A stretch of 58,042 nucleotides of DNA, filler included, from Dugesia japonica (lineage: Eukaryota), in assembly GCA_001938525.1 (NCBI GenBank). It is 5 parts of 5 records of this genome, joined end to end, with 100 filler letters (N's around TTAATTAATTAA, not from the genome) between each part and the next. Parts side by side here need not be neighbours in the genome. Positions count along the whole stretch, not along the records: positions 35,383 to 48,888 come from MQRL01249421.1; 4 more parts are not named here. One strand, written 5' to 3'. Of this stretch, positions 11,551-48,888 are shown piece after piece. The number at the start of each line of letters is the position of its first letter. Within the stretch, counting starts at the first letter, position 1. The notes beneath the pieces are model-generated. The model was not told where the DNA came from. It worked only from the letters and a program-made list of their open reading frames with translations, and ran no database searches. The translations under genes and the position numbers were made by a program.

Positions 11551-11614
11551 TATTATTCTTTTATTGATTTGCCACAAAAAATTCCCTGAATCAACCTGTC
11601 TATTTAATTTACCT

Positions 11615-12233
11615 CACAATAACAAATTTGTATATTTTGGATTTACTATTTTAGAATATGCAAAAGAAGTATAATTTGTATAATTTTGTATATAATCAAT
11701 TAGAACCAAAAGTCTGACAAGATAATTATAAAATTCATTACGGAGACACTGATTCTGCATTTATAGAGATAATTGGAAGAGATAATTTAGAAAAATTAAT
11801 TTGTTTTACTGGAAATGAATTATTTCAGATGAAAGATGAAATGCCTAATTCTGAAATTATTAAATGTGATTTTATAAAATCAAAATCTTATGCTTATGAA
11901 TATCTATTAAATGATAATGTTGAATTTCAGAAAAAACATAAAGGAATTCAATCTTTTAATAAAATTGGAATGAGGGAATTTGATATAGTATTAGAAAATG
12001 TATATACAAAAGTTTATGGAACTAATTATTCACTAAATTCTAACTTACATGAAATTGAAATTAAAAGTCAAAAGAAAATAGCTTTAACTGGATATGATGA
12101 TAAAAGAATTATTGAAGATAATGGAGTTGAAACATGGCCTCATGGAAGTGAATATGAATGTAAAAATTGTGAAGATTGGAATTTAAGATTAGATTCAATA
12201 AATAAAATATTAACATGTATATTTTTATTATAA
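11615..12233 (+). pseudogene. Polinton pPolB C-terminus, lineage A, intein-free allele
   Basis: GFTILEYAKEV, KIHYGDTDSAFIEI (YGDTDS at 11739-11756), QMKDE, KSYAY, KHKG, KIALTGYDDKR and TWPHG. Collinear with the extein of 44479-47004. Confidence 0.92.
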
Positions 12234-12236
12234 GAA

Positions 12237-12813: not shown

Positions 12814-12831
12814 AAATATTTTCTATAAAAA

Positions 12832-13760: not shown

Positions 13761-13763
13761 GAA

Positions 13764-14400: not shown

Positions 14401-14402
14401 AT

Positions 14403-14499
14403 TTTACTTGTTATCGCGCGAATGAAAACCTTACATTTTACATTTTACACTTTACTTGTTATCGCGCGAATGAATAACTTACATTTTATATTTTACATT
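14403..14499. repeat. Two tandem units of about 48 bp, each with a TCGCGCGA palindrome
   Basis: TTTACTTGTTATCGCGCGAATGAA..CTTACATTTTA twice, between the penton and protease genes. Confidence 0.85.
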
Positions 14500-14514
14500 T
14501 AAAAAATAGCGAAG

Positions 14515-14937
14515 ATGTCAGAAGTTTTATTAATATATTTCTTAAAAACATTTGGAATCTCTACAACTACAAATTTTGATTTATATTCAATTGCTGACTT
14601 TTTAGATCTCCCACTAGAGATTTATATGAAAAATGATATCCTAAGAACCCTAAAGGATTCTAACATAATTATTAATTATCAAAATTCAAATCAAAATGGA
14701 ACACATTGGGTATGTTACACTAAAGGTTATTATTTTGATTCTTTTGGTTTAAAACCATTAGAGAAACTTGAAAAGTTTACAAAGAAATATAATGAAATTC
14801 AAGTTCAACATTTTGGTACTGAAATTTGTGGAATCTTATGTATTTATTTTTTATATTCACTTCAACATAAAAAAGCTTTTGATGAAATAATATCTGAAAT
14901 GTTAAAACTTTATAATTCAATATTAATAAATGAATAA
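14515..14937 (+). CDS. Polinton adenain-like cysteine (maturation) protease
   Basis: Catalytic motifs GTHWV (His), YFDSFG (Asp) and QVQ....ICG..C (Gln/Cys). ORF intact. Confidence 0.92.
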   Translation: MSEVLLIYFLKTFGISTTTNFDLYSIADFLDLPLEIYMKNDILRTLKDSNIIINYQNSNQNGTHWVCYTKGYYFDSFGLKPLEKLEKFTKKYNEIQVQHFGTEICGILCIYFLYSLQHKKAFDEIISEMLKLYNSILINE

Positions 14938-17170: not shown

Positions 17171-17813
17171 ATGAAGAGTGACAAAATATATCCTGATCTT
17201 AATGATTACACAATTATAGATTTAAAAAATAAACTATCAATGTCAAGAATTAGAGATTTTGAAAATGATCTTTATTATATTAAAGATAAANNNNNNNNNN
17301 NNNNNNNNNNNNNNNNNNNNNNNNNNNNNNNNNNNNNNNNCATTATAAGAAAATACAAAAAAGATGGGAAAGAATAGATTCAGGTATAAAATATACACAA
17401 ATATTTATTAGTGCTGGAATTAGAATTGGTGGTGTTATATTAATTACTCCAGTTAGAATTGCGCTAACAACAATCGGAATACCAATAATTACTGGCGCAA
17501 TTTCCGTTTTACTAGTAATTGGAACATTAAATTCTTCGTTGATAAAATCTAGAAAAGAAAGATATGAAAAATTAATTAAGAAACTTGAATGTGTTAAAAA
17601 CAAACTATTCTTATTTCAACAAAAAGCTGTTAATGATGAAATACTTACTGATGAAGAATTAATGATTTCTAAAAATATGGTTAATGAAGTTCATGAGTTG
17701 ATATCTGGAAATAAAAAAGAAAAAACTAAAAATACAGATTTTTCTTTAAAAATGTAAATACAAAATCAAACTAAAGTAATTAATGAAATTAAATCGAAGC
17801 TAGGAATATTATG
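17171..17813 (+). CDS. Conserved Polinton/adintovirus membrane protein with a central hydrophobic hairpin
   Basis: KIYPDL...(gap)...YKKIQKRWERIDSG, a long hydrophobic Gly-rich segment, then KERYEK..KL....QKAVNDEILTDEE. May be the family labelled GasderminX (unverified). Confidence 0.55.
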
Positions 17814-17860
17814 ACGCAAATGAAGTCAATATTAGGAATATAAAAATTGACACGGCATGG

Positions 17861-18385
17861 GTGTTTGTTATAAAAATGAATACTTGGAATATAATGAGAA
17901 CAGTTGTTATGATTAAAATTTTTATTATAAAAAATACCTACATAATGGTTTATTTAAATTCGACACTTTTTTACAAACATGTGTATGATTTATGTTGTGA
18001 AGATTGTATAAACAAAATTAATAAAAATATTTTTGGTGAAGATAAAAAAATCACTCAAAAATTACCTGTGTGTGTTCAAAAAAGATTACCTGGTGTTTTA
18101 ATAAATACCCCTAAACAAATCGATACAACAAATCATAAAGAAAATGATGATGAAGAACATGATGAAGAAATAATTTCTAAAGAAGAAGGCGCTACGCTGG
18201 ACTATGTACAAAATGTTGTTGAAGAAATAATTTTTGTTGAAGAAAAAAAGGGAAATATGTTTGTTCATGGAGATATGATTGGTTTTAATAAATCTGATGA
18301 AAAATATTGGAATAGAGAATATGATCATTTACAAAAAGAAAGAATAAAAAAAATAAGAAACGAAAAACTTTTGAAGAAGAAATAA
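17861..18385 (+). CDS. Hypothetical Polinton protein
   Basis: 174-aa ORF within the cassette, with a CCEDC motif and an acidic stretch. Start uncertain. Confidence 0.45.
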   Translation: MFVIKMNTWNIMRTVVMIKIFIIKNTYIMVYLNSTLFYKHVYDLCCEDCINKINKNIFGEDKKITQKLPVCVQKRLPGVLINTPKQIDTTNHKENDDEEHDEEIISKEEGATLDYVQNVVEEIIFVEEKKGNMFVHGDMIGFNKSDEKYWNREYDHLQKERIKKIRNEKLLKKK

Positions 18386-18390
18386 GACCA

Positions 18391-19008
18391 ATGAAAACTT
18401 CATTTACATCTGATGAAGAAATAAAACCAATGAAAACTTCATTTATATCTGATGATGATTTACTAGATGATGATGAAATTCAAAAAGAAACAGAAATTCA
18501 AAAAGAAACAAAAATCCAAAAAGAAACAGAAATTCAAAAAGAAATCCAAGAAGATATTAAATTTTATCAAGAATTTTCAAAATCACTTGTAAATGATGTT
18601 AATGAACAATCATTTAATTTAAATGGTGCAATAGCTTTACCTGAGAACACATTAATATTAAAAGAAGAAACTTTAGAAAATATTAATGAAAATATTAAAC
18701 TTTGGTATAATAATTTAAATATAGAAAAACGAATTACTTTAATAAGTCTTTATAATTTAGGTTATTTCTTTGAACTGTTAAAAATAAAATTTAGAAGTAA
18801 TGATCAAATGTTAGAACATTTAATGAAAATTGGAATTTACTATAAAATTAATTATGTTAATAAAATAATAAAATTATATAAATTTGCTAATCAATATCCA
18901 GATATATTAAAATCAAGTTGGCCATTTAGAACAATAGAAAAAGAAATAAAAAGAATAAGAATATATTTTTCTGAGAAAATACATTTGACACTAACATCTA
19001 ACATTTAA
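18391..19008 (+). CDS. Hypothetical Polinton protein with acidic repeats and a helical C-terminal domain
   Basis: 205-aa ORF with QKETEI repeats. C-terminus is paralogous to 19783-20025. Confidence 0.65.
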   Translation: MKTSFTSDEEIKPMKTSFISDDDLLDDDEIQKETEIQKETKIQKETEIQKEIQEDIKFYQEFSKSLVNDVNEQSFNLNGAIALPENTLILKEETLENINENIKLWYNNLNIEKRITLISLYNLGYFFELLKIKFRSNDQMLEHLMKIGIYYKINYVNKIIKLYKFANQYPDILKSSWPFRTIEKEIKRIRIYFSEKIHLTLTSNI

Positions 19009-19009
19009 C

Positions 19010-19760
19010 ATCTAAAACAAATCATCTAACATTTCATCAGTTTCTTTATTTAAATAAAAATAATTATATTTAGTTTTCCAGTGAAGATTTACTTCATAAT
19101 CATNNNNNNNNNNNNNNNNNNNNNNNNNNNNNNNNNNNNNNNNNNNNACATTATCTCTATCAGTTTTATTTAACTTAAAAAATATATAACAATTAGAATT
19201 ATTTCTGATAGAGTTTTTATCTAATTGGTAATATGTTTGTGAAATGTAAATAACATTACAATTAGAATGTCTTTCTCTTGTGAAATAACATTTTGTACTT
19301 GTTGATTTTTTTCATTAACAACATCATCAAATATTATCAGATTTTTCTTTTCTGCTGAAAGTTTATCACAAGAAACTATTTCATTAGGTTTATTACTTAA
19401 AGTTATAAGTATAGATCTTTGTTTTTTAGTAACTAATTTTTTATCTAAGAAATATTGTACAACTTGATATGGAGTAGTATAATTATTTGGTACTATATTT
19501 TGATTTTCAAATATTAAACTTATTTCTTCTTTAGTTAATCCATTTTCTAAACCAATATAAAGAAATTGAATTTCAAATTGGGAGATTGTTGTAGAGTAAA
19601 TAATTAAATTATCATAATCTAAAATTTCAGGAGTTAGGAGCATTTTCATTAATAAAACATTTTTACCACAACCAGAAGATCCAATCATTAAAAGTCTAAA
19701 ATTATTGGGTAACACTTTATTATTAAATTTTGTTACATTTTTATTCCAGATATATGCCAT
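19010..19760 (-). pseudogene. Polinton packaging ATPase (FtsK/A32-like), lineage A
   Basis: Walker A GSSGCGKN and Walker B LIIFDD. After a frameshift: FTRKRHSNCNVIYISQTY. Confidence 0.9.
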
Positions 19761-19782
19761 TTTTATAATACAAAAATTTCGG

Positions 19783-21040
19783 TTATGCGTGGTCCATTTT
19801 TAATTCTGAATCAACAACTTCTTCAATTGCTTTAAAATTCATTGTTATCTTTCGAAATGAAAATTTACTACTTAATATTCTTGGAAACGTATCTACAATC
19901 TTACTAAATTGAATTAATTTATTTATGTATCTAATTGAATAGAAAATTTCTTCTCCAAGTAAATAATTTTTAAAATGTGAACTTTTTTTAAATTGTAGTT
20001 TAAGTAATAATAATAATTTCCCCAATCTAGAATAACCAATTAAACTAATTTGTTTAGTTTTAATTGTTACATCATTCCAATAATTAATTTCTTGTGAATT
20101 TTTCTTCTACCATGTGATTTGTATTTTTCTTCAGTTAATTCAGTAATTATTAAAGTTTTTTGTTCCGTTTTATTTGTTTTTACTGTTGATGAAGTAAATG
20201 TTGATTGTAATGATAAAGATTTTAAAAACTCTTGTTTAAAATTTAATTTTTCATCTAACTTACGTAAAACCTTATCATCATTTTCTAAAGATTTATATTT
20301 TTTCTTATTTAATTTCCCCATCTTGATTGTACTTTTTTCTAATTTAGTTAATGGTGATATTTCAGATTCATCGTTCTTAGAAATTGTTTCATCTTCACCT
20401 GAAGATTCAGATTCACTTTCATCTTTCTTAGAAATTATTTCATCTTCAGTTTTATATGATTCATCTTCACTTTCATCTTTCGTTGGAATTATTTTATCAT
20501 TCTTAGAAATTATTTTATCTTTCTTTGGAATTATTTTATCTTCATCTTTCTTTGGAATTATTTTATCTTCACTTTTATCTTTCTTTGGAATTATTTCATC
20601 TTTCTTAGTAATTATTTTATCTTCACACATCTTAGTAATTATTTTAGATTCAACTACCTTTGTAATTATTTCATCTTCATCTTTACTTTCATCTTTCTTT
20701 GTAATTATTTCACTTTTATCTTTCTTAGTAATTATTTCATCTTCACTTTCATATTCAGATTCATTTTCAGATTCAGAATATTCAGAATATGAAAGTTCAT
20801 CTTTACTTTCATCTTTCTTAGTAATTAATTGAGATTCTTTAAAATTTTTTTATTAGCTTGATATCTCTCCCATTGAGCATTACATTCAGAAAATGAAGAA
20901 TATTCAAATTCACTTTCATCTTCACTTTCATCTTTTTTAGTAATTATTTTATCTTCAAGAGTCTTTGGAATTATTTTATTTTCAAGTGTCTTTGGAATTA
21001 TTTTATCTTCACTTTCAGAAAATGTTAATCCTTTTTTAAG
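19783..21040 (-). pseudogene. Low-complexity acidic/Lys repeat protein with a C-terminal helical domain
   Basis: (E)DKIIPKKD / DEIITKKDES repeats. ORFs 20067-20630 and 19783-20025 are in one frame, separated by one TAA. Confidence 0.6.
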
Positions 21041-21044
21041 TTTA

Positions 21045-21350
21045 TCAATTTAGTTTATAATATTCTTTCATATTTCTTTTTATATCTTCCACAGTAATAT
21101 CTTCTTTAAAAATTATTTTAGGTGCATTTCCTATTACTAACTCTTCATTATTTTCATCTACACATACGAATCTGTTTTTTATAAATTTTTGTTTTAAAAT
21201 TCCAGATTTAATATTTTCATGTTTAGTTATTGTTATTTTTATCAATAATAAATTATCTCTAAGATTATTATAAAATTCTGGATCTGCACTTATATAAAAC
21301 CAAAATAATTCATCAATAAAATCTATTAAAAGTTCTTCAACTCTATTCAT
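21045..21350 (-). CDS. Hypothetical Polinton protein
   Basis: 101-aa ATG ORF directly downstream of the integrase, same strand. Confidence 0.45.
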   Translation of the reverse strand: MNRVEELLIDFIDELFWFYISADPEFYNNLRDNLLLIKITITKHENIKSGILKQKFIKNRFVCVDENNEELVIGNAPKIIFKEDITVEDIKRNMKEYYKLN

Positions 21351-21389
21351 TTATTACGATCATTTTTTAATCATAACTATAATTTTCTT

Positions 21390-22313
21390 TTATAATAAAG
21401 TTTTCTGTAATTCATTATTATAAAATCTTTCCAATATTTTGTTACCACTAAGATTACTGATTTCATTTGTAAATGGGTACTTATGAATTTTAGTAATAAC
21501 ATAAATTCTTTTTGACCATTTAAATTTATAACCTTTAGGAAAAGTTTTTCCTGATTTAGTAATTCTTACTCGATCTCCAATTTTAAATCTTAGCTTTTCA
21601 CTGTAAGGGTTTTTAGGTTTAATATTAATACTTTCTGGATTCATACTTGCTTCTTTTGGTGTAATATTAATTGTAGAATGTTTAGTGTTATTGTAATCAT
21701 TTACTATTTTATCTAATAGTTCAGGATTTATATCTTGATTCCCAACGGCAGTAAAATGGCAAAAAAGCTTATTTTTAAATGTACGGTTATATCTTTCAAT
21801 TACAACTGCTTTTCATTGATTTAAAGTTGAATAGATTTCAATATTATTTTTTTTACAAAAAGATTTAAATTCTTTATTATAAAATTCTTTACCTTCATCA
21901 ACCCATAATTTATTTGGAGTTCTATTATTTTTTTCTAGAATTCTTTCAAATGCTTTTGTTATTGATAATCCAGTTTTATTTTTAGTTAGTTCTATAAATG
22001 CAAATCTTGTGTATAAATCAATTACAGTTAATATTAAATTTTTCCCTTTTCTTTCTTTTCCTTGAAATATTAAATCTGCAGACCAAATATCATCTTTATC
22101 GTTAACTATTACTTTTCTAAAATTTTTAGGTTTTCTATATTCTTTATGAAGTTCTTTTGATAAAATGTCTCTTGAGGCGACTTCGTCGCTATCAGATTCA
22201 TCTTTTATAATTGTATTTTTAAATGGATCTTTTCTCGTTCCTTGATCAATCATTATTTTACCTTTCATTGCTAATTTTACAAGTGCTCTTTGAAATTTTT
22301 CTGTTAATGTAGG
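21390..22313 (-). pseudogene. Polinton retroviral-like (rve) integrase, 5'-truncated by contig end
   Basis: ELHK, WSADL, LTVIDLYTRFAF, LWVDEGKEF, IERYNRTFK, YNNTKHSTI, FKIGDRVRI, KGY..KWS and FYNNELQK. One in-frame TGA at 21813. Confidence 0.93.
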
Positions 22314-22413: not shown

Positions 22414-23903
22414 TATATATTTTCTCAACTTACATCTTCGAGTTATGAAAAGAAGTTGAATTATAAGACACACAACAACAAACCAACTGAAACCGTAGAA
22501 AATTGATTAGACGACGAAAAATCATGCAAAAATAAAGTTTAAATAATTAGGTTTCTTTCGAAGATTTTATCAATTGATCTAAAATAAAATTCATTAAAAT
22601 AAAAGCTTCAAACAAAATTTGTTTTTTTGGTTTTTGATAATAATTCTATATTTCGACTTTGTATTCGTCAGGAAAAGTCAATTCCTCACGAAAAGAAAGT
22701 TCAAAATATAGAAACAAATTTTCAACGAAGCTTTAATTTTAATGAATTCTGAAAATCGATCAATGGTTATGTCCAACAATTATTCTCGCAATAATTGCAA
22801 TTGTAAAATGAAATTGACAAATATTTTATCAAAAATAGCATGTGACTCATTTACGAACTGAAAATCATTTGATTAACAAATTTGAATTTTATGATATTAT
22901 AAGAATTCAAATTGACCTCACTTTCAGTTTTTAACTTCTTCCCTCTTGTCAACAGTTATATGTCATTTATAAAATGATATAAAGTTTTAAATTTGTTAAT
23001 ATTAAATGATTTTATTTGCTTAAATAATTCATTATTAATAAATAGTTTTTTGTTTAAATAAATAATTATCAAACTTTCAATGAATTCCTTAATAAAATTA
23101 TGTAAACAAATGTTTACGCATCCCCACAAATTAACAATATTTTAAATGATTTATTAAATTTATCATACAAAAAATTGTTGATGTCAACTTATCTTTGACA
23201 CTCTTCTTCAACAATTGCCAAAGTTCTTAAACTTCCCCTCCCTCAAATTTGTTGGCATAATTAATGGACAGCCCTTAATAAAAGTAGAAAACAAATTTAC
23301 TCAATTCACTGATATCTATAAAGGGCATAGTTATTATCTTTGATAAAATTTTTAATTGTCATTATTTGTAAGAAAAACTTCCTTATTAGAATACATTTAT
23401 TTAATACAATAATTATTGTGTAGAGTTTTCTTGAAATTAAAAATCTGAATCGAAAAATTCGATATTCTAACAAATATATGCACAATCATTTGCATAATTT
23501 TAATCTTATTTTTAAGGTTTTCTTATTTTTAAACTTTACCTAACTTTTATATAAGATTGCCAAATTGCCAATTAAAAAATTATAGTGTTTATCGGCTTGT
23601 AAAGTTCAAAAGGCAACTAATATAATTTATTAAACAAAAATCTATTTTTGACAAAGGAAAAATAACAAGTTTAATCGTAATAATTTTTATTGTCTATGAC
23701 ACTTTGCCATCTTAAACGCAAATTTTCTATCCCATCCTCATAAAAAGAGATGGACTTTGACGTAAAGAAATTTGAATAATACGAATAATTAGATAATTTA
23801 AAACAATTTACTCATTTTATGTTTTAACAAATATTAATTTATTTGACTTCATAATTAAAAAAAAAACGAAAGTATAAAATATAAATAGTATAAAGAGACC
23901 TAC

Positions 23904-24317
23904 CATTTATGGCTCTTTGATAACCTTCTGTACTATTATTGACTAGCCATCCTTTATTGTTGTCTGTCATGATTTTACCAATTTTCTGATATGATTCAAT
24001 TTCAGAATGATAGAAAAAATCAAATATTGCACTATTTTTAACAGTGCCGAATTTTATTTTACTGTCTGGTGGTAACTTAACTAAATCATCAACTGAATCT
24101 ATCGGATTTGTGTAAGCTTTAACTGTAAGAAAAGCTGCTAAATTTGCCGTATAACTAGTGACAATTATTAAAACAAAAAAATATAATGAGGCAGTCAAAA
24201 TTCGACCGGGGATAGAAAATGGTACATTTTCTGTCCCACCTTGTAATGTCGATGCAAAAATAAACCAAGAACTTTCTTTTAAATCAAATTTTACTCGATC
24301 TGTTGCTGGAAAATATT
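23904..24317 (-). CDS. Ionotropic glutamate receptor internal exon (M2 pore loop, M3, start of S2)
   Basis: SWFIFASTLQGG, GRIL, SYTANLAAFLT gating motif, PIDSVDDL, FGTV and EGYQRA. Bounded by ttttag and gtaggt. Confidence 0.95.
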
Positions 24318-24375
24318 CTAAAAGTGAATATATGTAAATGAAAACCATTTTTATGAATAAGAAATATATATTTAC

Positions 24376-24607
24376 TTTCATGGAAATGCTCAAGAATCCA
24401 CAATATGATTACTAATATTATGATTGATGATACAACACACAGCCAGATATTTGTACTGAATGGACCGAGAAATTGGAAAAATGACGGAGAATTTGTGGGT
24501 TTTTTCATTACTAAAGAGATTTCTCTTTGCTTGAAAGAAGTACTGAAATCTAAGTTCTCCTCACGTTCCTTAGTCTGAACAACAGGTCCTAATGAAATAT
24601 CTGCTTT
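24376..24607 (-). CDS. Ionotropic glutamate receptor internal exon (end of S1, M1)
   Basis: KADISLGPVVQTKEREENLDFS..F....ISLVMKKP...FQFLGPFSTNIWLC. A 58-nt GT-AG intron (24318-24375) joins it in phase to the next exon. Confidence 0.93.
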
Positions 24608-35382: not shown

Positions 35383-36077
35383 TATAAATACATATATAAA
35401 TATAAATACATATATTATTTAAATTAATTAGTTAATTAATTATATCCCTAATATACTTAAATTTAAATTAATATTTTAAAATATAATTAAAATTGTATTT
35501 AAATTAACATATAAAGAAAAAAAATAATTAAATTCTTTTTTTTTAAATTTCAAATACAATTAAGTAAATATAAAATTAAACAATCGATAAATATATTGAT
35601 TGTTTAATTTTTATTACTAAAGTAATTTGAAATTAAAAATGAAAACTTTAATTTTATATTACTATAATTACTATTATATGAATTATGGTAATATGAAATT
35701 AAGCAATCAATATATGTATTGATTGTTTAATTTCATATTATCATGGTAATAATTATGGTAATATGAATATAGATTATTTTTATATTTTAGTGGTTTGAGT
35801 AGTTCTCAAAATTTCCAGACACGTGATTTTTTGTATGTTGCAACTGTGTTGCATTCCTATTAGAATATTAATAATTTTAGAAGTTAAAGTATTTTTAAGC
35901 AATTTGTTTTTTATGTTGCATGCAAAAATGACTTTCAAGTATATTTTTAATGATTTTTTGAGATTTAAAATTATTAGACATGTGATTAAAAATGATTTGT
36001 CATGTGATTTAGATGATGTATGTTACTTATATATTGCATCTGAGTTACATCCCTATTGCAATATTAATATTTTTANT

Positions 36078-36268
36078 ATATTTTAGTTGTTTGAATAGTT
36101 AATAGCTAATTTTTAAATATAAAAATCTAAATATGAAAAGGAAAAATAACTAAATGATACATTTTTACTATATTTTTACTATATTTTAGTTGTTTGAATA
36201 GTTAATAGCTAATTTTTAAATATAAAAATCTAAATATGAAAAGGAAAAATAACTAAATGATACATTTT
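36078..36268 (+). repeat. Near-perfect tandem duplication, period about 102 bp
   Basis: TATATTTTAGTTGTTTGAATAGTTAATAGC...AATGATACATTTTT twice. Confidence 0.9.
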
Positions 36269-36980
36269 TTTTACAAATTACTAAACAAAAAAAAATAATT
36301 GTTATAATTCTCGAGTTCAATCAGATGCATATCCAATGACATCATCAAATTTAACAATGCACATCCATTAAAATCCGGAGAACAAAAATCAGCTCTCATG
36401 AACTGATTTACAATAACAGCCGAAATCATTGCTTTCCGTTCTTTGTCAAAAATTCCACGTTCTTCTAATATATCTGTTAGCATTTCTAAATTAAATTTTT
36501 TAAAAAAAAATAATTTTTAATAAATGTCAAACCTGTTTTTATAAAATCTTCTTCAAAATCTTTCATTGATGTCATTTTTTTAGTCATTTTAATTTGATTT
36601 ACAAGAAAATAATAATGAAATGCAATATATATGTTATATATATATTTTATATGAAATGCAATATAAAACCACTACGTAAATTATAAATTATTTGAAATTT
36701 AAATATCTAAATTTAAATTAATATTATTTGTACTTGAATTTTACTTAAATTGCATCTGTGTTGCGAATTTTCTGATTTTTTTCAAGCAAATTAAACAAAT
36801 CTGAAGTAATTTTATTCACATATCGTTCAAAATACAAATAAAAACACTTAACCTCAGTAACTAATATTCGTTATCATAATTAATGAATTAATGAAGAACA
36901 ATGTGATTTTGAAGGAGTTTATTTAATTGATTCGTTAAAACAAATATAAAAAATATACTAAATTATGAATAAAAAAAACA

Positions 36981-37570
36981 AGATGGATAAATTAAGAAAT
37001 GATGCAGTCTATCATAGTGTGTGACATAGTGGTAGTGGGAAAACTTTGTTTGTATGTCAATTATTGAAATCAAAGTTATTCAAGTTGAAATTTAAACATA
37101 TACTGAAATAGGGGTGCAGATGAGGAGCATAGGCTGACAAAAGTTGAATTTTGTAATATTAAAATTAAAGTTATAAATGGTTTTGATAAAATTGGAACAA
37201 AAGATTAAGACTAGGTGATGTTACTGCTGTTGATGATCTGTATCAGGAGGCGAAAAAAGAAAAAGATTTCAATAATTTATTCACAAATATATCGAGGCAT
37301 CGTAATGTGACCGTGATATGTATTTCTCAAAATATATTTCATAAAGGAGGTATGTAACAAAAAAGCCACATGGATATCTATTGACTTTATACAACAATAT
37401 CCAGATGGTTATAGAGTAAAAACAGATATATTCAATCCAAATGGTATCACAATATATAAACAAAATAGATAATCTTTTCATAATATTACAAAAATGACAN
37501 CATTTAAGAAATTTGTAGTTGATCAAGAAACTAAACCGTTTAGAATGATAATTTTACAATCGTTCCCATC
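36981..37570 (+). pseudogene. Polinton packaging ATPase remnant, lineage B
   Basis: HSGSGKTLFV, AVDDLY and LFTNISRHRNVTVICISQNIF. Confidence 0.8.
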
Positions 37571-37639
37571 ATACGCTATATATGATTTACTTGAAATTAT
37601 TATAAATACTGTTGTTGTAATGTAGATGTGAGTGCAACC

Positions 37640-37790
37640 AAAAAGAAAACATTGAAAAAACACAAAAACAACTTTATTAACGCTTGTAAACACAAAATAT
37701 AGAAAATCAATGAGACGAGTAATGCACAATCAAGGTGGTGGTTTTATAGCAGCATTGCTACCAATTACATTAGCTGCATTATGTTTAACT
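37640..37790 (+). pseudogene. pX-like protein remnant, lineage B
   Basis: RKSMRRVMHNQGGGFIAALLPITLAAL directly after the ATPase. Confidence 0.55.
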
Positions 37791-38082
37791 CATTTCAAAA
37801 AAACAATGGTTAACTTTAATGTTGAAGTCAATTTTGAAAAGATTCCAACAAAATAATATAAAACATATGGTATTGATGATTTATAGTGAATGTATCTAAT
37901 GGAAATGATTTCATATTTAAAGAATAATAAAGATAACAAGTATATTGTTTGTTATTTATCGTTGCATATAATAGATATGCAAGGAATTTCCTGTTTAAAG
38001 TAAATGGAATGAATAAACAATATTATGGATAAAACAAAGTGTGATAAAAGTATCACAAATAGTCAATAAAGGCAAATTTTTG

Positions 38083-38672
38083 ATGAAATCAAATATTTTT
38101 TATAACTTTTTACGGAGTAAAAGTAGTTTGTTAGTTAATCTAAAAAATAATGCTAGTAATTGCATTGTTGAGCTTCAAAATCCAATTTGCAGGAATGGTA
38201 ATTGGGAAGTTGCCATGATGGATTTCAACTTTATATATTCAGACATGCCCATTTACAGTCAATCAGGGATTGAATATGAATTATTTAAGCCAATTGATAA
38301 AGAACTAATACTTGGAGTTAACAACAGAGAAAAAAGATGCTTTTTATTGTTAATTTGCAAGATAAATATAAAAATAATACAGAAACAGATATAAAATTCA
38401 AGAAAAATAAGATAACTTTTAGTAGTGATATTAAATTCCACAGTTTGTCATTTGATACTTTTGAAAACTTGGTAAGATTTACATATAGTAAAGATGAAGT
38501 TAAAAGAAAGTATAGTTGTATAAATTTCGATGATCATAAATTATTTTCGATTCGCTTTCATGACTTTAAAAATTATGATTCTGTTGAAAAAATAAAAATT
38601 AAATATTATTATGCGACTGTAACTAAACAATCAAATTCAATCACAACCAATCAGAAATTAAAACACAATTGA
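38083..38672 (+). pseudogene. Polinton minor capsid protein N-terminal part, lineage B
   Basis: FYNFLRSKSS....NNASNCIVELQNPI..NGNWEVAMMDF is the typical penton N-terminal motif. Frameshifted. Confidence 0.65.
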
Positions 38673-39149
38673 CAAAATAAATATTACCCATCACAATACC
38701 ATTCCAACCACACATTAACCAACCAAATCCATCAACCCCATACAAAGATACACTCTCCCAAAATACACCCCACGATAACTGTGCGTTACCATAGTTGTAC
38801 GACAAACCATCCATCCAACCTCATAAGTCCTTAAGGCAATATATAGACCAAATCTTTGTCCAACAACACCTAAATCTTAAAAATTATTTCCAAGATCTCC
38901 AGCTCCCATTCAAGTCCAAAACAATTCTTACACACACCACCTCAACTTAACCTACTTTTTAAAAACCCACTTAGCAACCCACACACACACAAATTTTAAA
39001 ATTTTAAAATACAAACACACACACCACCAGGAATAAAAATTTTTGATCGCAAAATTTTAGAAAAAAAACCAGCACAAAAATATCAGCGCAATCGTAATGT
39101 GTTTCCAAGACGGGTGTAAATTGAACACGTGCGCTACTATTCCACTACT
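38670..39149. repeat. Polinton right TIR and terminus
   Basis: AC-rich, direct similarity to 41560-41975. Ends GTGCGCTACTATTCCACTACT, and pPolB coding sequence of another element follows immediately. Confidence 0.75.
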
Positions 39150-40044
39150 GATTAGAGTTTTATTTAAAACAGGATATGAAAATTAATAAAATACATAACA
39201 AATATCAAATGAAAATGAGACTCTGGTTAAAGGAATACATTGAATTTAATATACATCAAAGAAATATAGCCAAAAAGAACAAAGATGTATTTAGTGATTA
39301 TTTCTTTAAATTAATGAATAATGCCTTTTATGGAAAGACTTTTGAGAATATTAGAAAAAGATGCAATATAGTTATTGTATCTTCAGATAAAAATTTCCTG
39401 AAATAGATGAGTAAAATATCATCGAAATCATCAAAAATATTTACTGAAAATGTAGTAGTCATAAATATATGGAATACGAATTTAAAATATAAAAAGTTTC
39501 CGTATGTTGGCTTCGCTATTTTGGAATATGCTAAATTGATTAAATATGATTTTATATATAATCAATTAGATTCAGTAATTCGGAATCAGTATAAAATTTA
39601 TTAATCTATATTTATGAAAATTACTGCTGATTATAATTTTTAAAAAATGTGAAATTTAATAAATAATAATTTCAAATGAATGATGAAAAACCTTCATCTG
39701 AAATAATTAAATGCGATTTCATAAAAGCGAAATCATATGCTTATGAATATCGCGAAAATCAATCTGAATTATTGAATTTAGATAATAAGCATAAAGGAGC
39801 ATCTAAATTCAATAATATAGGAATGAATTCATTTGATAAAGTATTAAAATCAAATGAATTCATTTATGACATTAATTATTCATTAAGATCGAATAAACAT
39901 CAAATTACTGTTATCGAACATAAGAAAATTGCTCTTGTTGGTTATGATGACAAGAGATTGATTGAAAATAATGCTATAAAAACAATATTGCAATCAATAT
40001 CATCATACTTTAGACAAATTAAATGGGTTATTAAATTGCTATAA
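39150..40044 (+). pseudogene. Polinton pPolB C-terminal part, lineage A, motif C deleted
   Basis: WLKEYIEFN, FFKLMNNAFYGKTFENIR, GFAILEYAK, KSYAY and KIALVGYDDKR. Confidence 0.88.
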
Positions 40045-40767
40045 TTTATTAGAAATTTCATGTAAATATATGTACATATTTTTTCTAATATAATTTTTAA
40101 AAAAAGTAAAATATCCATCTCCAATTTTTATAAAATTACATTTTTTATTATGTAAATGACTTTAAAAAATTTTATTAATTATTTTATTACTCTTGATTTC
40201 AATTTCTTTTAAAATGTATTAAATTTTTTATTCAATCATTTTTTTATTTATAGAAAAACAAGAAGTATGTATAATACGCTTATAATTAAGCAAATGTTTT
40301 TCTGGCTTTATGACGATAAATCCAGCGAACAAAGTGAGCAATCGTATGCTTGAAAAGCNCACGGGGAGTTCAAGTCGTAGAGCTAGCTCTTAATTCTGAG
40401 TTCAAAGATACCAAATTCGAAATTGTACAATACAATTTGAACAAAGAATTTCTAACCGAAAATTGAAATTTTCAACCTTTTTGAGCAAAGATTCAACCAT
40501 TCCAACCCGAATTTATAACGACCTACATTTTGGATCACCCAAATTGCTGAATTCCTTCGTCAGTGGTGGGTTAGGGATACTGATCCAGTGCACTAGAATT
40601 TATCTACTGTCTTTGTAATGGCCAAAAAAGAAAAATATCTAAAAATTTTCAAAGTACTTAACTTGATATTTTCATTTGTATATGTAAGAAAATTAATTTT
40701 ATGCTGTAATCCGTTGTTTACAAAGAGATCTATCATCAGTCTCTAAAAGAAGGAACATGTGAACAGA

Positions 40768-40945
40768 TCTAAAAAGAACAATTGAGGTCGCTTTGAGACA
40801 GATCAAGGAACTGGTTGAACAATCCCAAAATAGTCCTCTTGATTATAGACATAACTGCCAATACAGAATTGCTAGAATCATAAGCATCAGTTTGTAGATA
40901 TTAAACTCTCAAAATCTATATTTTTTAACTAAAAAAAACATTTAC
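40768..40945 (+). repeat. Direct repeat of about 42247-42433
   Basis: Shared AAGAACAATTGAG, CAAAATAGTC, ATTATAGACATAACTGCCAA, ATCAGTTTG and TTTTTAACTAAAAA. Confidence 0.75.
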
Positions 40946-41499
40946 CATGGTTAAATAACAGAGTTAGTTGGTTACTTGTGGAAAAACTATGTAATCAGCA
41001 GTAATCAAATTTTTATTGACATTTCGATTGTAATTAATAAAACAAATTTTAAACTAGTCAAATATATAGTTATATCTCCACAAGACAAAAATTAAAATGC
41101 ATCTCCATATAAAATATAAATTATGCTTATTTATTTTATTTAGTTATTAATTAGGTTACTTGATCAGTCAAATTTTTTTTGAATTTTCCGCCGAAAAAGT
41201 GTTTAAAAATATCAAGACTCCCCTCTTCCCCAGTCGAATATTTTACAAAACAACACTTCCACGATCAAAATACCGAAAAAAATAATCAAAATTACATCAA
41301 ATACTCAAAAATACCATTTTTTAAAATTAAATTCATCAAATTAAGCAATATACAGTATTTTTACAAATTAAATATTTCAAACATTTTTGACGTCATAACC
41401 AACTAACAGAAAAATTTTAAATAAATCTTATAAAATTGGATAAATAATTCTCTTTTCACACATACAAACCTCCACTTCACGAAATTAATTTTAACGCAC

Positions 41500-42245
41500 T
41501 TAAACTACTTACAAAATAAACCAATCAAAAAGTAGCCCTTAAAATACAAAATCAAAGCACATTTGACAACCAACATCTTCACCATCACATTAGCTCTCCA
41601 ACAAGCCGTCAACCAACAAATTCCATTAACAACATAAAAACCTACAACCAAAACAAAAACCACCCACGATAACTCATACGCCTGGGCCCGTGTGCCACTA
41701 CCATTGTAGTGAAAACCATTCATCCAAACTCATATGTCCTTTAGACAATATATAGACCAAATTTTTATACAACAACAAATAAATCTTCAAAATCCCAAAA
41801 AAATTATTCACAAGATCTCCAGCTACTCCTCTTCGTTTTTTCCAGTCTTTTACAAAAACACACACACAAACAAACACACAAACACAACTTGACCTACTTT
41901 TTAAACACCCTTAACAACCCAAACACACAGAAAATTTAAAATTTAAAAATACACACACACACACCTTCAGCATCAAAAAAAACTAATAAGATAAAAAAAA
42001 ATCAATGGGATCAAAAATCAATCTGAACTTGAATTATTTCAACGAATCAGAATCGAGTATACGAGATCACATACTTTGAAAATTCGACCTTGAAATATTT
42101 CAGCCAATGAGAATGAAGTATACTAAAACACTGACCTTGAAATATTTCAGCCAATGAAAATGAAATATACTAGAACACTGAACTTGAAAAAATTTGACCT
42201 TGACGCGGGTGGAGGGGTTTTCCAGTGCGCTACTATCTATTTACT
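41500..42245. repeat. Polinton right TIR and terminus with CCAAT-containing sub-repeats of about 46 bp
   Basis: Ends CAGTGCGCTACTATCTATTTACT. GACCTTGAAATATTTCAGCCAATGA(G/A)AATGAA is repeated at about 42087 and 42133. Confidence 0.75.
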
Positions 42246-42644
42246 GTCTAACAAGAACAATTGAGATCAATTTGATACATAGATCAGAAAACTGGCGGTA
42301 ACATCCAAAAATAGTCATTTTCATTATAGACATAACTGCCAAGATAAAATTGATAAAGAATGTAACATATCACAATTATCAGTTTGCAGACGTTACGTAT
42401 TCAAAATCTGTTGTTTTTAACTAAAAATCATTTAACAAAGTAGTATATAAGTATATATATAACAACCCCAAATCCTCCAGGGTTTGGGGGGTTGTTTATT
42501 ATATGCCACATTTTACGTTAAAAATCCATACAGTAAAATGTAAAATGAATCTATAAAAGTGCTGGTGAAAGAGGAATAATTTAAGAGGAAACGATATACT
42601 ATGATTAAATTTTTTATTATAAAAAAGAGAAGAAAATATAACAA

Positions 42645-45600
42645 ATGTCTTCATTTAAATGTTCAAATTGTGATAAAATCTTTAAAAATAAACGTGGTTT
42701 AAATTCACATATAGAATCTAAAAAATGTCAAATTATAAATCTAAGTGATTATCTAACATGTCCAGTTTGCAATAAAAAATTTAGGACACAACTTGGTTTA
42801 AATGTTCATTTGAAAAAAACTGATTGTTCTTTAATACATTTATATTGTGAAATTTGTGATAAACATTTTGATAATTTAGAATTAATNAATGAACATAAAC
42901 TAACTAATAAACGACATTTGTTATTAACTAAAAAAATAGAAAAAAATTGGAAAACAAGACCAAGACATATTCTAGAAGTATTTAATCAAGAAACATACCC
43001 AGAATACTATTATATCGATGTTTATTTAAATAGTAAATTAACAATGATAAAAAATGTAGAAGGTAGAATGTTAGATACAACTCAATTTCTTAAAATAGAA
43101 ATAGAATATGCTGTCAGAGAGTTTTTTAAACTAGGATTTAAATTTTATTTGAAAGTAGGAGTTGCATGTCATTATGTTAAAGAAGAAGAGATAATGGTAA
43201 TTTATTCTTATGTACCAAATACAAGAATTTATGCAAAAGCGACAATACCTGACAAATTAGAAGTAATATGAAAAACTAGAAAATTTAATGCAAAATAAAG
43301 AATTAGCTGGTTCTGGTTGGATTATGTCACATATAGTTAATTATAGATTAGAATTTAAAAAATATGGTTCATTATGTAAAGCCGGCGCTTTTACTTATTG
43401 TGAGTTACCAAAAGAAATAACAAATAAAAAAGGAATTATTAACATAGAAAACAAAGATGATAAATGTTTACTATATTCAATTCTCGCACATAAATATATT
43501 TTTCATAATCCAACACGTGTTTCTAATTACATTCCACTTTTATCAGAATTAAATACAACAGGAATGAATTTTCCAGCGGAACTTGGCGATATAAAAATAT
43601 TTGAAAAACTAAATAATTTTAAAATAAATGTTTTTGAATTAGACACAAAAATTATACCAATTCGCATTAAACATTTTTCAGTAAAACCAAAACCAGAAGA
43701 AAATAAATGTAATCTTCTAATTTATAAAAGTCATTTTATATTAGTTAGAAATGTACAAGCTTTATTTAATATTAAACATGGTAATCAATTATGTCTCGGT
43801 TGTATGAATATTTATTCTTCTAAAAACGTTTTATTTAAACATCAAGAAGAATGTATACATCATAAATCATTGAGTGTTAAATTTCCATATCAAGAACACT
43901 TTAAGTTTCAAAATTACTATTTTAAAAATAAAATTCCATTTGTAATCTATTGCGATTTTGAATGTTACACTAAAGAAGATAATACNCAAGAACCAATAAG
44001 TCTTGGAATATTTATAAAATCTGAATATCCAAAATTAATTCCAAGTAAATATTATTATTCCACAGGTGTAAATGTAGTTAATGAATTTATAAAATTTCTT
44101 GATAACATTAATAACAAATTTAATGATATAAAAAAAGAATACTTCGGAGAATATCCAGAATTCATTAAAAATTCAAAATGTTATTATTGTTCCAAGGAAA
44201 TACTAAAAGATCCAGTTTTTGATTATAATTATTACACCCAAGAACCTCATGGTTATACACATAAAGAATGTAAACAATCTGAAAATCTATTTATACCATG
44301 CTACTTTCACAATGCAATGGGTTATGATAGTCATTTATTCTTTAGACAACTTTAATATAATAATCCTGGAAAAGTAAAAAATATAATTCCACATTCTGAA
44401 GATCAATATATAGCATTTAATTATGGACATATTAGATTCCTAGATTCATTTAAAATATGTAAAACATCAGTCGAGAAAATGGGTGAAACATTGGCTAAAT
44501 CAGGAAATCATAAAATATTAAAATCTTATAGACTAAAACCTAAAAAAGTCTTATTTCCATATGACTATGTAAAAGCTAACAATCCCAAAGAAATTGAAGA
44601 ATTATTAAAATCCAACAGAATTCCAGAGAAACAAGATTTCTTTTCTAAACTAAGACAAAAAGGAATATCTGACCAAGAATATCAAGAATTTTTAAAAGAA
44701 TATTCTAAATTTGAAAATCTCTGGAATTACATGTTACATTATATGATGTTAGATGTTTTAATCTTAGCAGATTACGTAGAAAANNNNNNNNNNNNNNNNN
44801 NNNNNNNNNNTAAAATAGATCCAAGTTATTGCTATACCGCATCAGGTTTAACATGGCAAGCTGGAATGAGATTTACACAAGTAAAATTAAAATTTGCAAA
44901 ACCAGAAACCTATAACACTTTCCTAAAATTTGAACGTGGAGTTCGCGGAGGATATTCAGGAGAAGAAGGCGAACGTCAGGTATTTTCACATAATAAAAAT
45001 AAAAATCCATATACTAGACAACTAAATAAATCAGATTTTGAAGATATAATAAAAATGATGAATTCAAATCAAGAAATTAATGTTGATAATATAATGGAAA
45101 ATAGACATATAAAATATGTCGATGCAAATTCTCTTTACGCATCATGCATGACAAAACCATTGCCAACAGGAGAATTCAGCGAATGTAATGAGCTAGATTA
45201 TGAGAAATCAACTGAAGAAATGAATTATCTATATGAAGTTGACCTTGAATATCCTAAAGAATTGCATGATAGAACTAAATATTTCCCATTAGCACCTGAA
45301 AGTTTACTTGTTACAGAAAACATGTTAAGTAATTATCAAAAATTATTTAAAGTAAAACCATCAGATAAAAATATTAAATTAACAATGAACCAATTCGATA
45401 AAAAGAATTATATAATCCTAGGTTCAACTTTAGATCTATATCTTTCATTAGGAATCCAACTAAAAAAGATACATTCTAAATATAAAATGCCAACATCTAC
45501 ATGGTTAAAAAAATATATTGATTTTAATATCACACAAAGAACTTTAGCAAAAAGAAATAAAGATGAATTTGGCGTATCTTTCTTTAAAGTCATGAATAAT

Positions 45601-47004
45601 TCATTTTATGGAAAAACCCTAGAAAATATTAGAAATCGTTGCAATGTTCATATTGTAGGAACTGATAAAGATTTTCAAAATCTCGTTTCTAAACCAACAT
45701 ATTTAAGTTTTAAAACTTTCAAATTAGAACCAGGAATTGTATCTAAAATAGCAGCAGTTCACATGACAAAAACGAATTTAAATTATAACAAATTTCCATA
45801 TCTTGGATTTACTATCCTAGAATATGCGAAAGAAGTAATATATAATTTTGTATATAACCAATTAGAACCAGAAATCGGAAATGATAATTATAAAATTCAT
45901 TATTCTGACAGTGTAACCCATGACACTCCAATATTACTAAGAAAAGATAATAAAGTTGAAATAAAAAAGATTTCAGAGATCAATCAAAATTATACAAAAA
46001 ATCTGGAAAAATATTATTCTTATCCTGAAAATTATGAAATTTGGACTAAAAGTAACTGGGCTCCATTGAAAAAAGTAATTAAACATACAACAAATAAAAA
46101 GATTTATAGAATAAGAACTAAATTAGGAATTGTCGATGTAACAGAAGACCATTCATTATTAAATGATAAATCTATAGAAATTAAACCAACAGATTTAACA
46201 CCCGAAACTAAATTATTACATAATAAATTTAAAACATTAATATCTTTAAATAATACATTTTCATGTGACATTTTAAATAAAACATTTAAAGATAAAATAT
46301 TTTTATCTAAAGCTTATTATTTAGGAACATCTTTAGGAATGAATTTAATTATTACAGAAGATTTTAAAATTCAAGAAGTAAAATCAGATATTTCAACTAA
46401 TCTCCAAACCGTAAGATTTTTAAGAGAAAATATAGAAGATGTTTATGATATTGAAACTGAAGATGGATCATTTAACTGTGGATTTCCTTTGATAATAAAA
46501 AACACGGACAGCGTATTCATAGAAATAACAGGTGATAAAAATCTAGAAAAATTAAATTTATTAACCGGTGATAATCTATTTCAGATGAAAGATGAAATGC
46601 CTAATTCTGAAATTCTTAAATGTGCATTCATAAAACCAAAATCATATGCATATGAATGGGTCCCTCAGGGAAAAAATAGTGATGATAAAGGAGAGATAAA
46701 ATTTAATAAAAAACATAAAGGTGTACAGAGTTTCAATCCTATTAGAATGCAAGAATTTGATTCAATATTAGAAGATGCAAAGAAAATAATTTATGGCACA
46801 AATTATTCTTTAAAATCAGAATTACATGTAATTCAATTAACAGAACAAAAGAAAATAGCATTAACAGGTTATTCTGATAAAAGAATCATAGAAGACAATG
46901 CAACAAGAACATGGCCACATGAAAATCAATATAAATGTGAAACATGTCATACTTGGCATTTAAAATTAGATAAAATCAATAAAAATCTAACTTTATCTCG
47001 TTAG
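42645..47004 (+). CDS. polB: Full-length protein-primed family B DNA polymerase (pPolB) with N-terminal zinc fingers and an intein; one frameshift (about 43268) and one in-frame TAA (44353)
   Basis: ZnF x3, GSGW, IINIENKDDKCLLYSILA, ExoI YCDFEC, ExoII FHNAMGYDSH, FLDS, FPYDY, ExoIII Y..LDV..LAD, RGG, motif A DANSLY, motif B KVMNNSFYGK, motif C YSD|TDS, KSYAY and KHKG. Confidence 0.93.
45910..46503 (+). mobile_element. Mini-intein (198 aa) in pPolB motif C
   Basis: In-frame insert between YSD and TDS. Block A SVTHDTPILLR, block B VDVTEDHSLL (TxxH), block F VYDIETEDGSF, block G LIIKN followed by +1 Thr. Absent from the paralogue at 11739. Confidence 0.95.
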
Positions 47005-47042
47005 ACAAAACTGTTTAAATTGCTAAATAATAATATTAGAAA

Positions 47043-47705
47043 ATGTCAGAAGCAACAGAAGAAGAATTAGAAAAAATAGTTAATTCTAAAAAATGTAAAT
47101 CTGTAAAGATCAACGGTAAAAATTATTATATTTCTAAAAAAGTTAAAGATGAAGCCAAAAAGAAACATGAAGGTGGATTTGCATTTCTAGCTGCAATACC
47201 ATGGGTAATTGGTGCTTTAGCAACAGCATCTGGAGCTGCATCTGGTATTGCATCTACAGTTGCAAATTCTAGAGATGCTATTAAAAAAACAAAAAGAAAC
47301 AGAATTAATTGAATTACAAAAACAAGTTGAAGCTAAAAAACTAACACCAACTCCAGCACCAGGACCAGGACAAATAACATCTGGGACTGGAATTAAAAAA
47401 CCACAAGGGCAAACCCATAAAGGAAGACAACAAAAAAGAAGAAAGAAGGTAAAGGTATTTTTTTAAATCCATATCAAGGCACTGCAATTCATAAATATTT
47501 AAAAAATATTGATCCTAAATTTAAAATTCTAACTAAAAAATTTAAATCCGGAACACACATAATTCAACATGGAAAAGGAATTTATTTAAATCCATATAAA
47601 AGTGGAAAAGGCCATAAAGGCAGAAAGGGAATTGAAGATGAAACTGAAACTGAAACTGAAGATGAAACTGAAGATGAAACAGAAGATGATGAACAAAACC
47701 CATAA
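47043..47705 (+). CDS. pX-like / core protein, frameshifted
   Basis: EGGFAFLAAIPWVIGALA, then GKGIFLNPYQG..GKGIYLNPYK and an acidic tail. Homologue of 12237-12813. Confidence 0.65.
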
Positions 47706-47738
47706 AGAAAGAAAGGGCCAAAATTAAAACTATATAAA

Positions 47739-48785
47739 ATGGATGCTAGAATTAAAGAATTAAAAGCTCTAATTAAATCTCAAGAACAATATAATAATTA
47801 TTTTTCTTCTAAAATTCTTGATTATAATACTTTACAAAGCAACTTATCCACTTTACAAAATCCAACTATCTCTGCAATTGAAAAACTTGGAATAAAACAA
47901 GAAACTAAAATGCCAGATCAATTAATGATAAAAGATGAAATAATAAACCACAAGGGCGACAAGTCAGAAACCATAAAGTCAGAAACCATAATAAACCACA
48001 AGGGCGACAAGGATGAAATTGATTTATTAAATAAAGATGTAATTATTCTCATGGTACTTAAGTCTAAAGATACATCCCCATTTTCACCCGATAATTTAAC
48101 AATAAATACTACAAATATATCACCAACAATAACTCCTCAATTTGATGAAATACCTGTAACACCAGATAAAAAATATAAAAGATTATATTATCCCAAAACA
48201 TATGCATCAATATTTTTCTTTACAATTAATNATGTAAAACATTTATCAATAAATAATACAATTTATGAAGATGAATATCAAGATAAATTTGTTGATTTAA
48301 TGATGGGTAATCTACATACAGATTATACTTTATATGAAAATGATGATATTTTTAAAAAGTTTATTTTAAAATATTTAACAGAAATAATAAAACCACCTCC
48401 GAAAAATAATTATTGTGAATTTTTTAAACAAATATCTGGATATAATAAAATTAGAAAAAAAAGTAAAGTTGAACAGAAAGATCTTGAAAAAGCTTTTAAA
48501 AAACAAGAAAAAGAAGATTCTAAACAAATGTTAAAAAAACAAAAAGAAATGGAATCGGATCCTACAAAGACCATAAAGGAAAGAAAAATTCATGTAGCTG
48601 ATGGAGTCAAGAAACAAACAAATCCAATTGCATTATTTGAAAAGTTAACATTGTTAATTTCAACTGTAAAATCTGGACATAATAATCTCTCATCTGAAAT
48701 TAAGAGTATCTGTAAAAATTTAAAATCTAAAGGTTTATTATCTGATATTATTTATAAAAAGTATAAGTCAAAATATTTAAGTTAA
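47739..48785 (+). CDS. Conserved Polinton uncharacterised protein
   Basis: Intact 348-aa ORF. C-terminal NPIALFEKLTLLISTVKSGHNNLSSEI motif, of a type common in Mavericks. Confidence 0.8.
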   Translation: MDARIKELKALIKSQEQYNNYFSSKILDYNTLQSNLSTLQNPTISAIEKLGIKQETKMPDQLMIKDEIINHKGDKSETIKSETIINHKGDKDEIDLLNKDVIILMVLKSKDTSPFSPDNLTINTTNISPTITPQFDEIPVTPDKKYKRLYYPKTYASIFFFTINXVKHLSINNTIYEDEYQDKFVDLMMGNLHTDYTLYENDDIFKKFILKYLTEIIKPPPKNNYCEFFKQISGYNKIRKKSKVEQKDLEKAFKKQEKEDSKQMLKKQKEMESDPTKTIKERKIHVADGVKKQTNPIALFEKLTLLISTVKSGHNNLSSEIKSICKNLKSKGLLSDIIYKKYKSKYLS

Positions 48786-48818
48786 TAAATCACGTTAGTC
48801 AAAATATTTCCTATAGAA

Positions 48819-48888
48819 ATGTCTCATCAATTCTTAGTAGTTGGAACAGAACAAGATTTAAAAATAAATTTAGATTATCCGATAAAAT
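48819..48888 (+). CDS. Penton N-terminus, truncated by contig end
   Basis: MSHQFLVVGTEQDLKINLDYPI matches MSHQFLIVGKKQDLKLDLKFPL at 13764. Confidence 0.75.

Follow-up and report, generated by a model that had tools for sequence, protein, structure and literature searches.

Motif C of a protein-primed DNA polymerase (pPolB) in a Polinton of the animal Dugesia japonica is split by a mini-intein that is predicted to splice itself out. We hold with fair confidence that this intein descends from giant-virus inteins, that Polintons captured it once and that it has since spread by homing. It belongs to a known intein family, here in a host class and a kingdom from which none had been reported, and the full homing cycle is visible in one genome. 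The window, which is the whole stretch of DNA that was analysed, comprises 58,042 nt (assembly GCA_001938525.1, five parts joined end to end), of which positions 35,383 to 48,888 come from the intein-bearing contig, MQRL01249421.1.

Results

The intein and its host polymerase

The pPolB gene carries an in-frame insert of 594 nt in motif C, at the site YSD/TDS (the slash marks the insertion point). The stop-free translation of 45910-46503 gives 198 aa (SVTHDTP…VYDIETEDGSFNCGFPLIIKN) between YSD and TDS. The features of the gene and of the insert are as follows.

42642..47004, plus strand: Polinton pPolB gene in three pieces (PF03175, 50.9 bits, cutoff 25.8)
42642-43271, plus strand: pPolB piece 1, zinc fingers
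43267-44355, plus strand: pPolB piece 2
44356-47004, plus strand: pPolB piece 3, polymerase domain and intein
45901..45909, plus strand: N-extein end Y-S-D, first half of motif C (translation)
45910..46503, plus strand: predicted 198-aa mini-intein (TIGR01445, AlphaFold, Foldseek, catalytic residues)
45910..46227, plus strand: N-terminal splicing region, residues 1-106, blocks A and B (TIGR01445 over residues 2-84; dN/dS 0.30)
46228..46287, plus strand: linker from the endonuclease deletion, variable and disordered (dN/dS 1.16 for residues 107-127; pLDDT <50 at 112-118)
46288..46350, plus strand: relic of endonuclease block H, helix, residues 127-147 (block H match; model helix 129-141; dN/dS 0.43)
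46402..46503, plus strand: C-terminal splicing region, blocks F and G (dN/dS 0.17)
46504..46512, plus strand: C-extein start T-D-S, with Thr+1 the predicted nucleophile (translation; invariant in minis)

The insert passes the intein_Nterm profile TIGR01445 (38.4 bits, cutoff 24.5), and its match to PF14890 is sub-threshold (19 bits, cutoff 35.8). The AlphaFold model of the 198 residues (mean pLDDT 89.4) has a predicted HINT fold: the top 34 ranks listed by Foldseek in the PDB are inteins without exception (best E 1.7e-8), and seven of the top eight BFVD matches are named giant-virus DNA polymerases, the eighth being unnamed. The intein called here by the initial annotation is thus real.

Class 1 inteins are described as having Ser or Cys at position 1, a terminal Asn, Ser, Thr or Cys at +1, a Thr and a His in block B and an Asp in block F (PMC4031507). 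The insert carries this set, with Ser1, Thr78-x-x-His81 in block B, Asp180 in block F and Lys197-Asn198 before Thr+1; it is predicted on sequence grounds to be a class 1 intein, and the native 198-aa form is predicted to self-splice. Ser1, Thr78, Asp180, Lys197, Asn198 and Thr+1 are identical in 37 of 37 minis, and every one of the 12 rows of alignment A1 has His81, as does the window copy. The usual assisting residue of inteins is a penultimate His, which is common but not required, splicing in its absence being the subject of published papers; it is absent from the window copy, where the position is Lys. The initial annotation had singled out this Lys, and it is indeed present, but it is not a special feature. 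All 49 genome alleles share it, and KN is also the ending of 175 of 261 B-family relatives, so that it marks ancestry and not a lesion.

About 95 residues lie between His81 and block F, some 60 of them linker, and no LAGLIDADG family gave a profile match in the 198 residues, in agreement with the short spacing and missing LAGLIDADG motifs first reported for this insert. The suspicion that it also retains a relic of endonuclease block H is upheld by the helix K127-I147, for which block H was the best-scoring region in 14 of the 14 long inteins with a result. A fusion of blocks C and H was considered for this relic and rejected, as the part upstream of Tyr-Tyr has no consistent best match and the whole helix matches block H. 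Some minis retain a KDKPN-like segment after the relic helix.

The host protein is a PF03175 protein-primed PolB and not an RNA-primed giant-virus PolB (PF00136). Two lesions upstream of the intein, a frameshift (near 43267-43271) and a TAA stop (44353-44355), disrupt the window copy, which is therefore a fossil as assembled; an assembly gap falls within the gene at 44784-44810. The pPolB N-terminus (42642-43271) shows three C2H2 zinc-finger matches, as do other copies of the family.

The host genome and its Polintons

The assembly searched is fragmented (854 Mb in 648,594 contigs). It gave 34 matches to Wnt genes, which were found in none of 14 control genomes, and the host is therefore an animal. 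The PF03175 match above cutoff accords with the pPolB of a Polinton/Maverick element. No integrase, packaging ATPase, protease or capsid gene was found within the intein contig's stretch of the window, and the A32 and adenain matches in another stretch are below cutoff. An rve match above cutoff lies on a contig that carries a full-length intein (L127), and double-jelly-roll capsid genes occur genome-wide (126 scored out of 2,803 candidates). The seven best-matching sequencing runs belong to one organism (four samples, three studies), and a single-copy stretch just upstream of the pPolB gene (42143-42449) was found in three of the four runs mapped. Given the capsid genes, the co-occurrence of integrase and full intein, and the recurrence across runs, the intein-bearing elements are, to judge from their sequences, very likely endogenous Polintons.

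It is highly improbable that the elements come from a contaminant or symbiont rather than from the animal. No contig was seen, in a search that was not systematic, linking an intein-bearing element to a recognised animal gene. Against such an origin, however, stand the hundreds of copies, many of them decayed, the single organism behind the seven best runs, the presence of 42143-42449 in three of four runs, and the GC content of 22-25% at seven element loci, set beside 27-30% at four Wnt loci.

Four RNA runs, sampled at 6-25%, placed 58 reads, none of which was ≥95% alike, and no RNA dataset on record is listed as containing the intein sequence.

Kinship with giant-virus inteins

Outside the genome, the intein is matched best by full inteins of other pPolBs (P0003, P0004, P0006, P0015, P0192 and others). 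The next best are inteins of giant-virus-type PolB and topoisomerase II, where 'giant-virus-type' was assigned from domains, the ChoanoV1 label, IMG/VR contigs and BFVD, most of the polymerases being unnamed. In a tree of 61 full inteins (built, like the other trees, under LG+G4 with no mixture model), the 14 Polinton rows form one clade (100/100), which is sister to short-loop giant-virus inteins including that of Mimiviridae ChoanoV1 (96/91). The short F-G loop of the C-terminal splicing region (46402-46503) is common to the window intein and this one giant-virus clade, in which the loop is likewise one residue shorter. The kinship with giant-virus pol-c inteins claimed at the outset is therefore supported by both the BFVD matches and the intein trees, though the intein lies in a Polinton-wide clade and not alone among giant-virus inteins. 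The breadth of that clade makes the capture older than the window element, and the sequences probably record one older capture by Polintons, with no transfer into the window element itself.

When a 30-row tree (19 rows removed as long branches or near-duplicates) was rooted on a jumbo-phage motif-C intein, the Polinton clade was nested within the giant-virus-type inteins (98/96); this tree does not resolve the sister relation of the Polinton clade to the short-loop clade. An alternative root, tested on the same tree with its one long-branch phage outgroup, was not rejected (AU p=0.17). The phage outgroup intein has a long loop and a His, so that the short loop and the Lys look derived. On these trees the direction from giant virus to Polinton is likely, though short of proven. 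The reverse, or an older shared origin, with giant viruses receiving the intein from Polintons or from a common pool, is unlikely. The unrejected root would allow it, as would the long Polinton stem branch (0.35-0.42), but the maximum-likelihood nesting and the derived loop and Lys argue the other way. So does a profile search spanning 1.84 billion representatives. Its hits were inteins of giant-virus-type PolB and topoisomerase, and of the 132 new proteins in the top 150 not one was a pPolB by motif, some having no extractable junction pair.

The initial annotation had gone further and proposed a transfer from an NCLDV polymerase during a co-infection or virophage-like phase. A direct, recent transfer of this kind into the present Polinton lineage would fit the insertion site, the KN ending and the F-G loop shared with one giant-virus clade, and also the giant-virus polymerases among the best structural matches. 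It is nevertheless largely refuted, and we give it very little credence, since the nearest relatives are inteins of other pPolBs in a single 100/100 clade. The best match in IMG/VR is only 39-48% identical. Of 64 inteins extracted from IMG/VR, 63 are inserted at YxD/TDS, the site shared with the window intein. The genome gave no giant-virus PolB with one query, which speaks against the proposed co-infection; the same query also missed the host Pol delta, so this blank weighs little. The interpretation given in the initial annotation is borne out in part.

Scans of viral contigs with a single intein and with P0192 gave no match, an exact-pattern scan of metagenomes gave only one 39-nt match, and the ESM Atlas returned generic intein clusters only. 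In a quick tree, a giant-virus intein on an IMG/VR GVMAG contig (L219), ending FNCGFPIIIKN, adjoins the Polinton clade on a long branch (support 93), and is a possible lead to the donor lineage.

Over the target DNA from -9 to +12, Polintons and giant viruses share about 65% identity, compared with 73% among giant viruses, which makes a cross-family jump plausible. The same intein family is seen in topoisomerase II-type proteins (P0029, P0032, P0034 and 29 others). There the site, DxD/TDG, mimics the polymerase motif, which suggests that non-allelic jumps may be guided by similar target DNA.

Movement among Polintons

The nearest outside intein, that of P0003, is 51-54% identical to the genome's inteins, which are its sister group (100/100), while the P0003 polymerase has no significant match to the window pPolB (E >0.5). 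Forcing the intein tree to congruence with the polymerase classes was rejected (AU p=4.5e-6); an old Polinton intein clade congruent with the exteins, the finding that was to have told against a giant-virus source, is thus not what was observed. Within the genome, six loci belong to a distant pPolB family with 21-37% aa identity in the extein, yet their inteins are mostly 73-81% identical in DNA, and this similarity starts and stops no more than about 10 nt from the splice junctions, the pattern expected of homing. Exteins that are 99% identical occur in filled and empty form in another source. In an extein tree (quick search, 106 rows, 16 of 122 left out), the mini, full and empty states interleave, with 15, 13 and 15 changes. 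Taken from the sequences, it is likely that the intein spread between Polintons by homing.

A single entry, with the patchiness produced by recombination, precise loss and chimeric assembly instead of homing, has a small chance of being correct. In its favour are the fragmented assembly, a family with similar copies by the hundred, and the mostly broken state of the full-length copies, with stops in 14 of 30 compared with two of 30 minis (top matches counted by hand, and biased by ranking). Such an account leaves unexplained, however, the intein in the 21-37% identical family with similarity ending at the junctions, the P0003 incongruence, and the purifying selection on the full endonuclease described below.

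A second, decayed pPolB on the intein's own contig (39590-39620) is missing four codons at precisely the point where the intein inserts. An identical 12-nt loss is present at one more locus (L238, G000:C645590:2839-2867), and the pattern has two matches, with one in the control. The loss could conceivably be a repair scar of homing-site cleavage.

Cluster mates of P0015 (P0159-P0164) are shorter, at 1,121-1,193 aa, and the four compared are 97-98% identical over their length; no motif-C junction was found in P0159-P0164, and these may be truncated copies. Outside clusters of this kind have 41-136 members, which lie on long contigs, like multi-copy elements of other eukaryote assemblies.

Allele states and selection

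An exact-pattern census of the genome counted 1,186 empty and 658 filled junctions (0 and 1 in controls), and block-H signatures numbered 293 for mini, 28 for full and 20 for degenerate alleles; all are lower bounds, and as each class was counted with a different pattern the figures are not strictly comparable. Reading across both junctions gave 38 minis of 192-237 aa, two with a stop, and five degenerate alleles of 302-315 aa with open frames in which both LAGLIDADG motifs are eroded. Full alleles are 338-353 aa long and have both LAGLIDADG aspartate motifs. The longer alleles with an endonuclease for which the initial annotation proposed a search therefore exist at this site in the same genome, and support the loss of the endonuclease from the mini. 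Of 12 full-type alleles read across the junctions, ten have stops or out-of-frame lengths (two of them spanning gaps) and two have gaps, so that they give no sign of current homing.

Pairwise comparison of 37 minis gave a dN/dS of 0.30 (95% 0.20-0.39) for the N-splicing region and 0.17 for the C-splicing region, with 0.14 and 0.20 for the exteins, 1.16 for the linker and 0.43 for the relic helix; the copies are top matches, and the intervals resample columns only. These low values in the splicing regions indicate that splicing was kept under selection while the elements replicated. For the endonuclease region, dN/dS is 0.29 in six full alleles against 0.76 in five degenerate ones, consistent with a nuclease maintained in the full class only.

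From relic to Asn, the minis form one clade (29 rows, support 97), and they probably go back to a single deletion. The flanks of the minis, in contrast, reject monophyly on the 5' and the 3' side (p=1.6e-5 and 1.2e-4), so that the nuclease-less allele appears on many polymerase backgrounds; in the N-splicing tree mini monophyly is not rejected (p=0.09). These DNA region trees exclude 12 of 49 rows with short flanks or no motif found. The mixed backgrounds are best explained if empty sites cut by a full allele were repaired from the mini, a template that is abundant and cannot itself be cut, with ordinary recombination as the rival. With the assembly in 648,594 contigs, chimeric joins of similar copies could give a false impression that the mini moved between close backgrounds, but not the sharing of an intein between distant families.

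Discussion

The history that best accommodates these data would begin with a LAGLIDADG intein moving from a giant-virus PolB into a pPolB, aided by similar motif-C DNA. The intein crossed between very distant pPolB classes, as read from the sequences, presumably by homing. In the lineage of this animal the endonuclease decayed by two routes, one through the 302-315-aa degenerate form and the other by a single large deletion that retained the block-H helix. As the insert splits the D-T-D of the active site, splicing would be required for replication; elements that replicated would have had to splice, which would hold the splicing domain under selection. The endonuclease-less mini would then have served as the template for repair of empty sites cut by full-length alleles, and so have reached new polymerase backgrounds, unless ordinary recombination carried it there.

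More tentatively, and with somewhat less than even confidence, Polintons may be an intein reservoir of animal genomes, in which one giant-virus intein invaded protein-primed polymerases, homed between families of Polintons in the germ-line lineage of an animal and produced the mini, which hitchhikes on the cuts of full alleles. If so, one animal genome would hold a complete homing cycle together with a parasite of a parasite, minis outnumbering full alleles by about 10:1.

The motif-C site is labelled pol-c, following InBase. Giant-virus PolB inteins at this site (pol-c, site III; Mimivirus R322, ChoanoV1, HaV01, Megavirus) share the position Y-x-D/TDS, Ser1, the Asn/Thr junction and the LAGLIDADG cargo, the R322 intein having 351 aa with Ser/Asn/Thr (PMC549080). 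The ChoanoV1 intein (P0215) is 44% and 36% identical in its two halves and likewise has the short loop and KN. The host here differs, being an integrated Polinton pPolB whose extein has no significant similarity to the giant-virus extein.

Empty, full, degenerate and mini alleles make up the homing cycle of the fungal VMA1 and PRP8 inteins. The same states are seen here, with the splicing domain selected and the endonuclease decaying, but among paralogous elements in one genome rather than as alleles of single-copy genes across species. For a giant-virus PolB intein, trans-acting homing has been proposed (PMC5871332).

Nuclear scaffolds from Klebsormidium, from Tetrabaena and from a labyrinthulomycete have been described as carrying viral-like DNA polymerases with inteins (PMC10710043), which likewise entered eukaryote nuclear genomes by way of endogenous viral polymerase genes. 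The cases described there are algae and protists, whereas the present genome has hundreds of copies in all allele states; Polinton or metazoan terms are absent from the main text and two supplements of that article. Polinton pPolBs are also described with HNH and VSR nuclease insertions (PMC10748475; PMC11161782), which Krupovic et al. suggest stem from intein invasions (PMC11161782). These are likewise mobile nuclease domains in Polinton pPolBs but are described as nuclease domains only, while the present insertions, at motif C, combine a splicing domain with a nuclease of the LAGLIDADG type. That protein-primed polymerases might harbour a splicing-type intein had, in these sources, previously only been suggested (PMC11161782).

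Searches of openly accessible articles gave no account of a splicing-type intein in either a pPolB of Polintons or the nuclear genome of an animal, and the word 'intein' does not occur in the main text of Jeong et al., Starrett et al. or a 2026 preprint. The survey of Green et al. 2018 gives inteins as absent from metazoan genomes, a rationale for intein-targeted drugs (PMC5784728); set against this are at least 658 intein junctions in the present genome, in integrated viruses and not in host genes. The elements record a probable genetic contact between giant viruses and Polintons, and the homing cycle becomes measurable within one genome, where the alleles number in the hundreds and fall into four states. 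If splicing occurs, protein engineering could make use of a natural Ser/Thr junction that needs no cysteine and comes from an animal-hosted element.

Other features of the window

Two ORFs lie 3' of the pPolB gene, at 47040-47312 and 47706-48785, in an order seen in many copies (L033, L038, L039, L110). The upstream one begins with basic residues and contains a hydrophobic segment rich in Gly and Ala. No Pfam family matched either ORF above cutoff; both may encode virion core proteins.

A different stretch of the window, not a neighbour of the intein, contains a related polymerase:

11718..12230, plus strand: related pPolB with an empty site, YGD/TDS

The second Polinton stretch to which it belongs (11551-22313) comprises, besides this empty-site pPolB end, an A32-like ATPase (19224-19799) and two ORFs, one resembling a protease (14503-14934) and one resembling an integrase but without a Pfam match (21393-21812). 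In a stretch other than that of the intein, a host gene is represented on the minus strand at 23842-24408 by a ligand-gated ion channel exon (PF00060, 74.7 bits).
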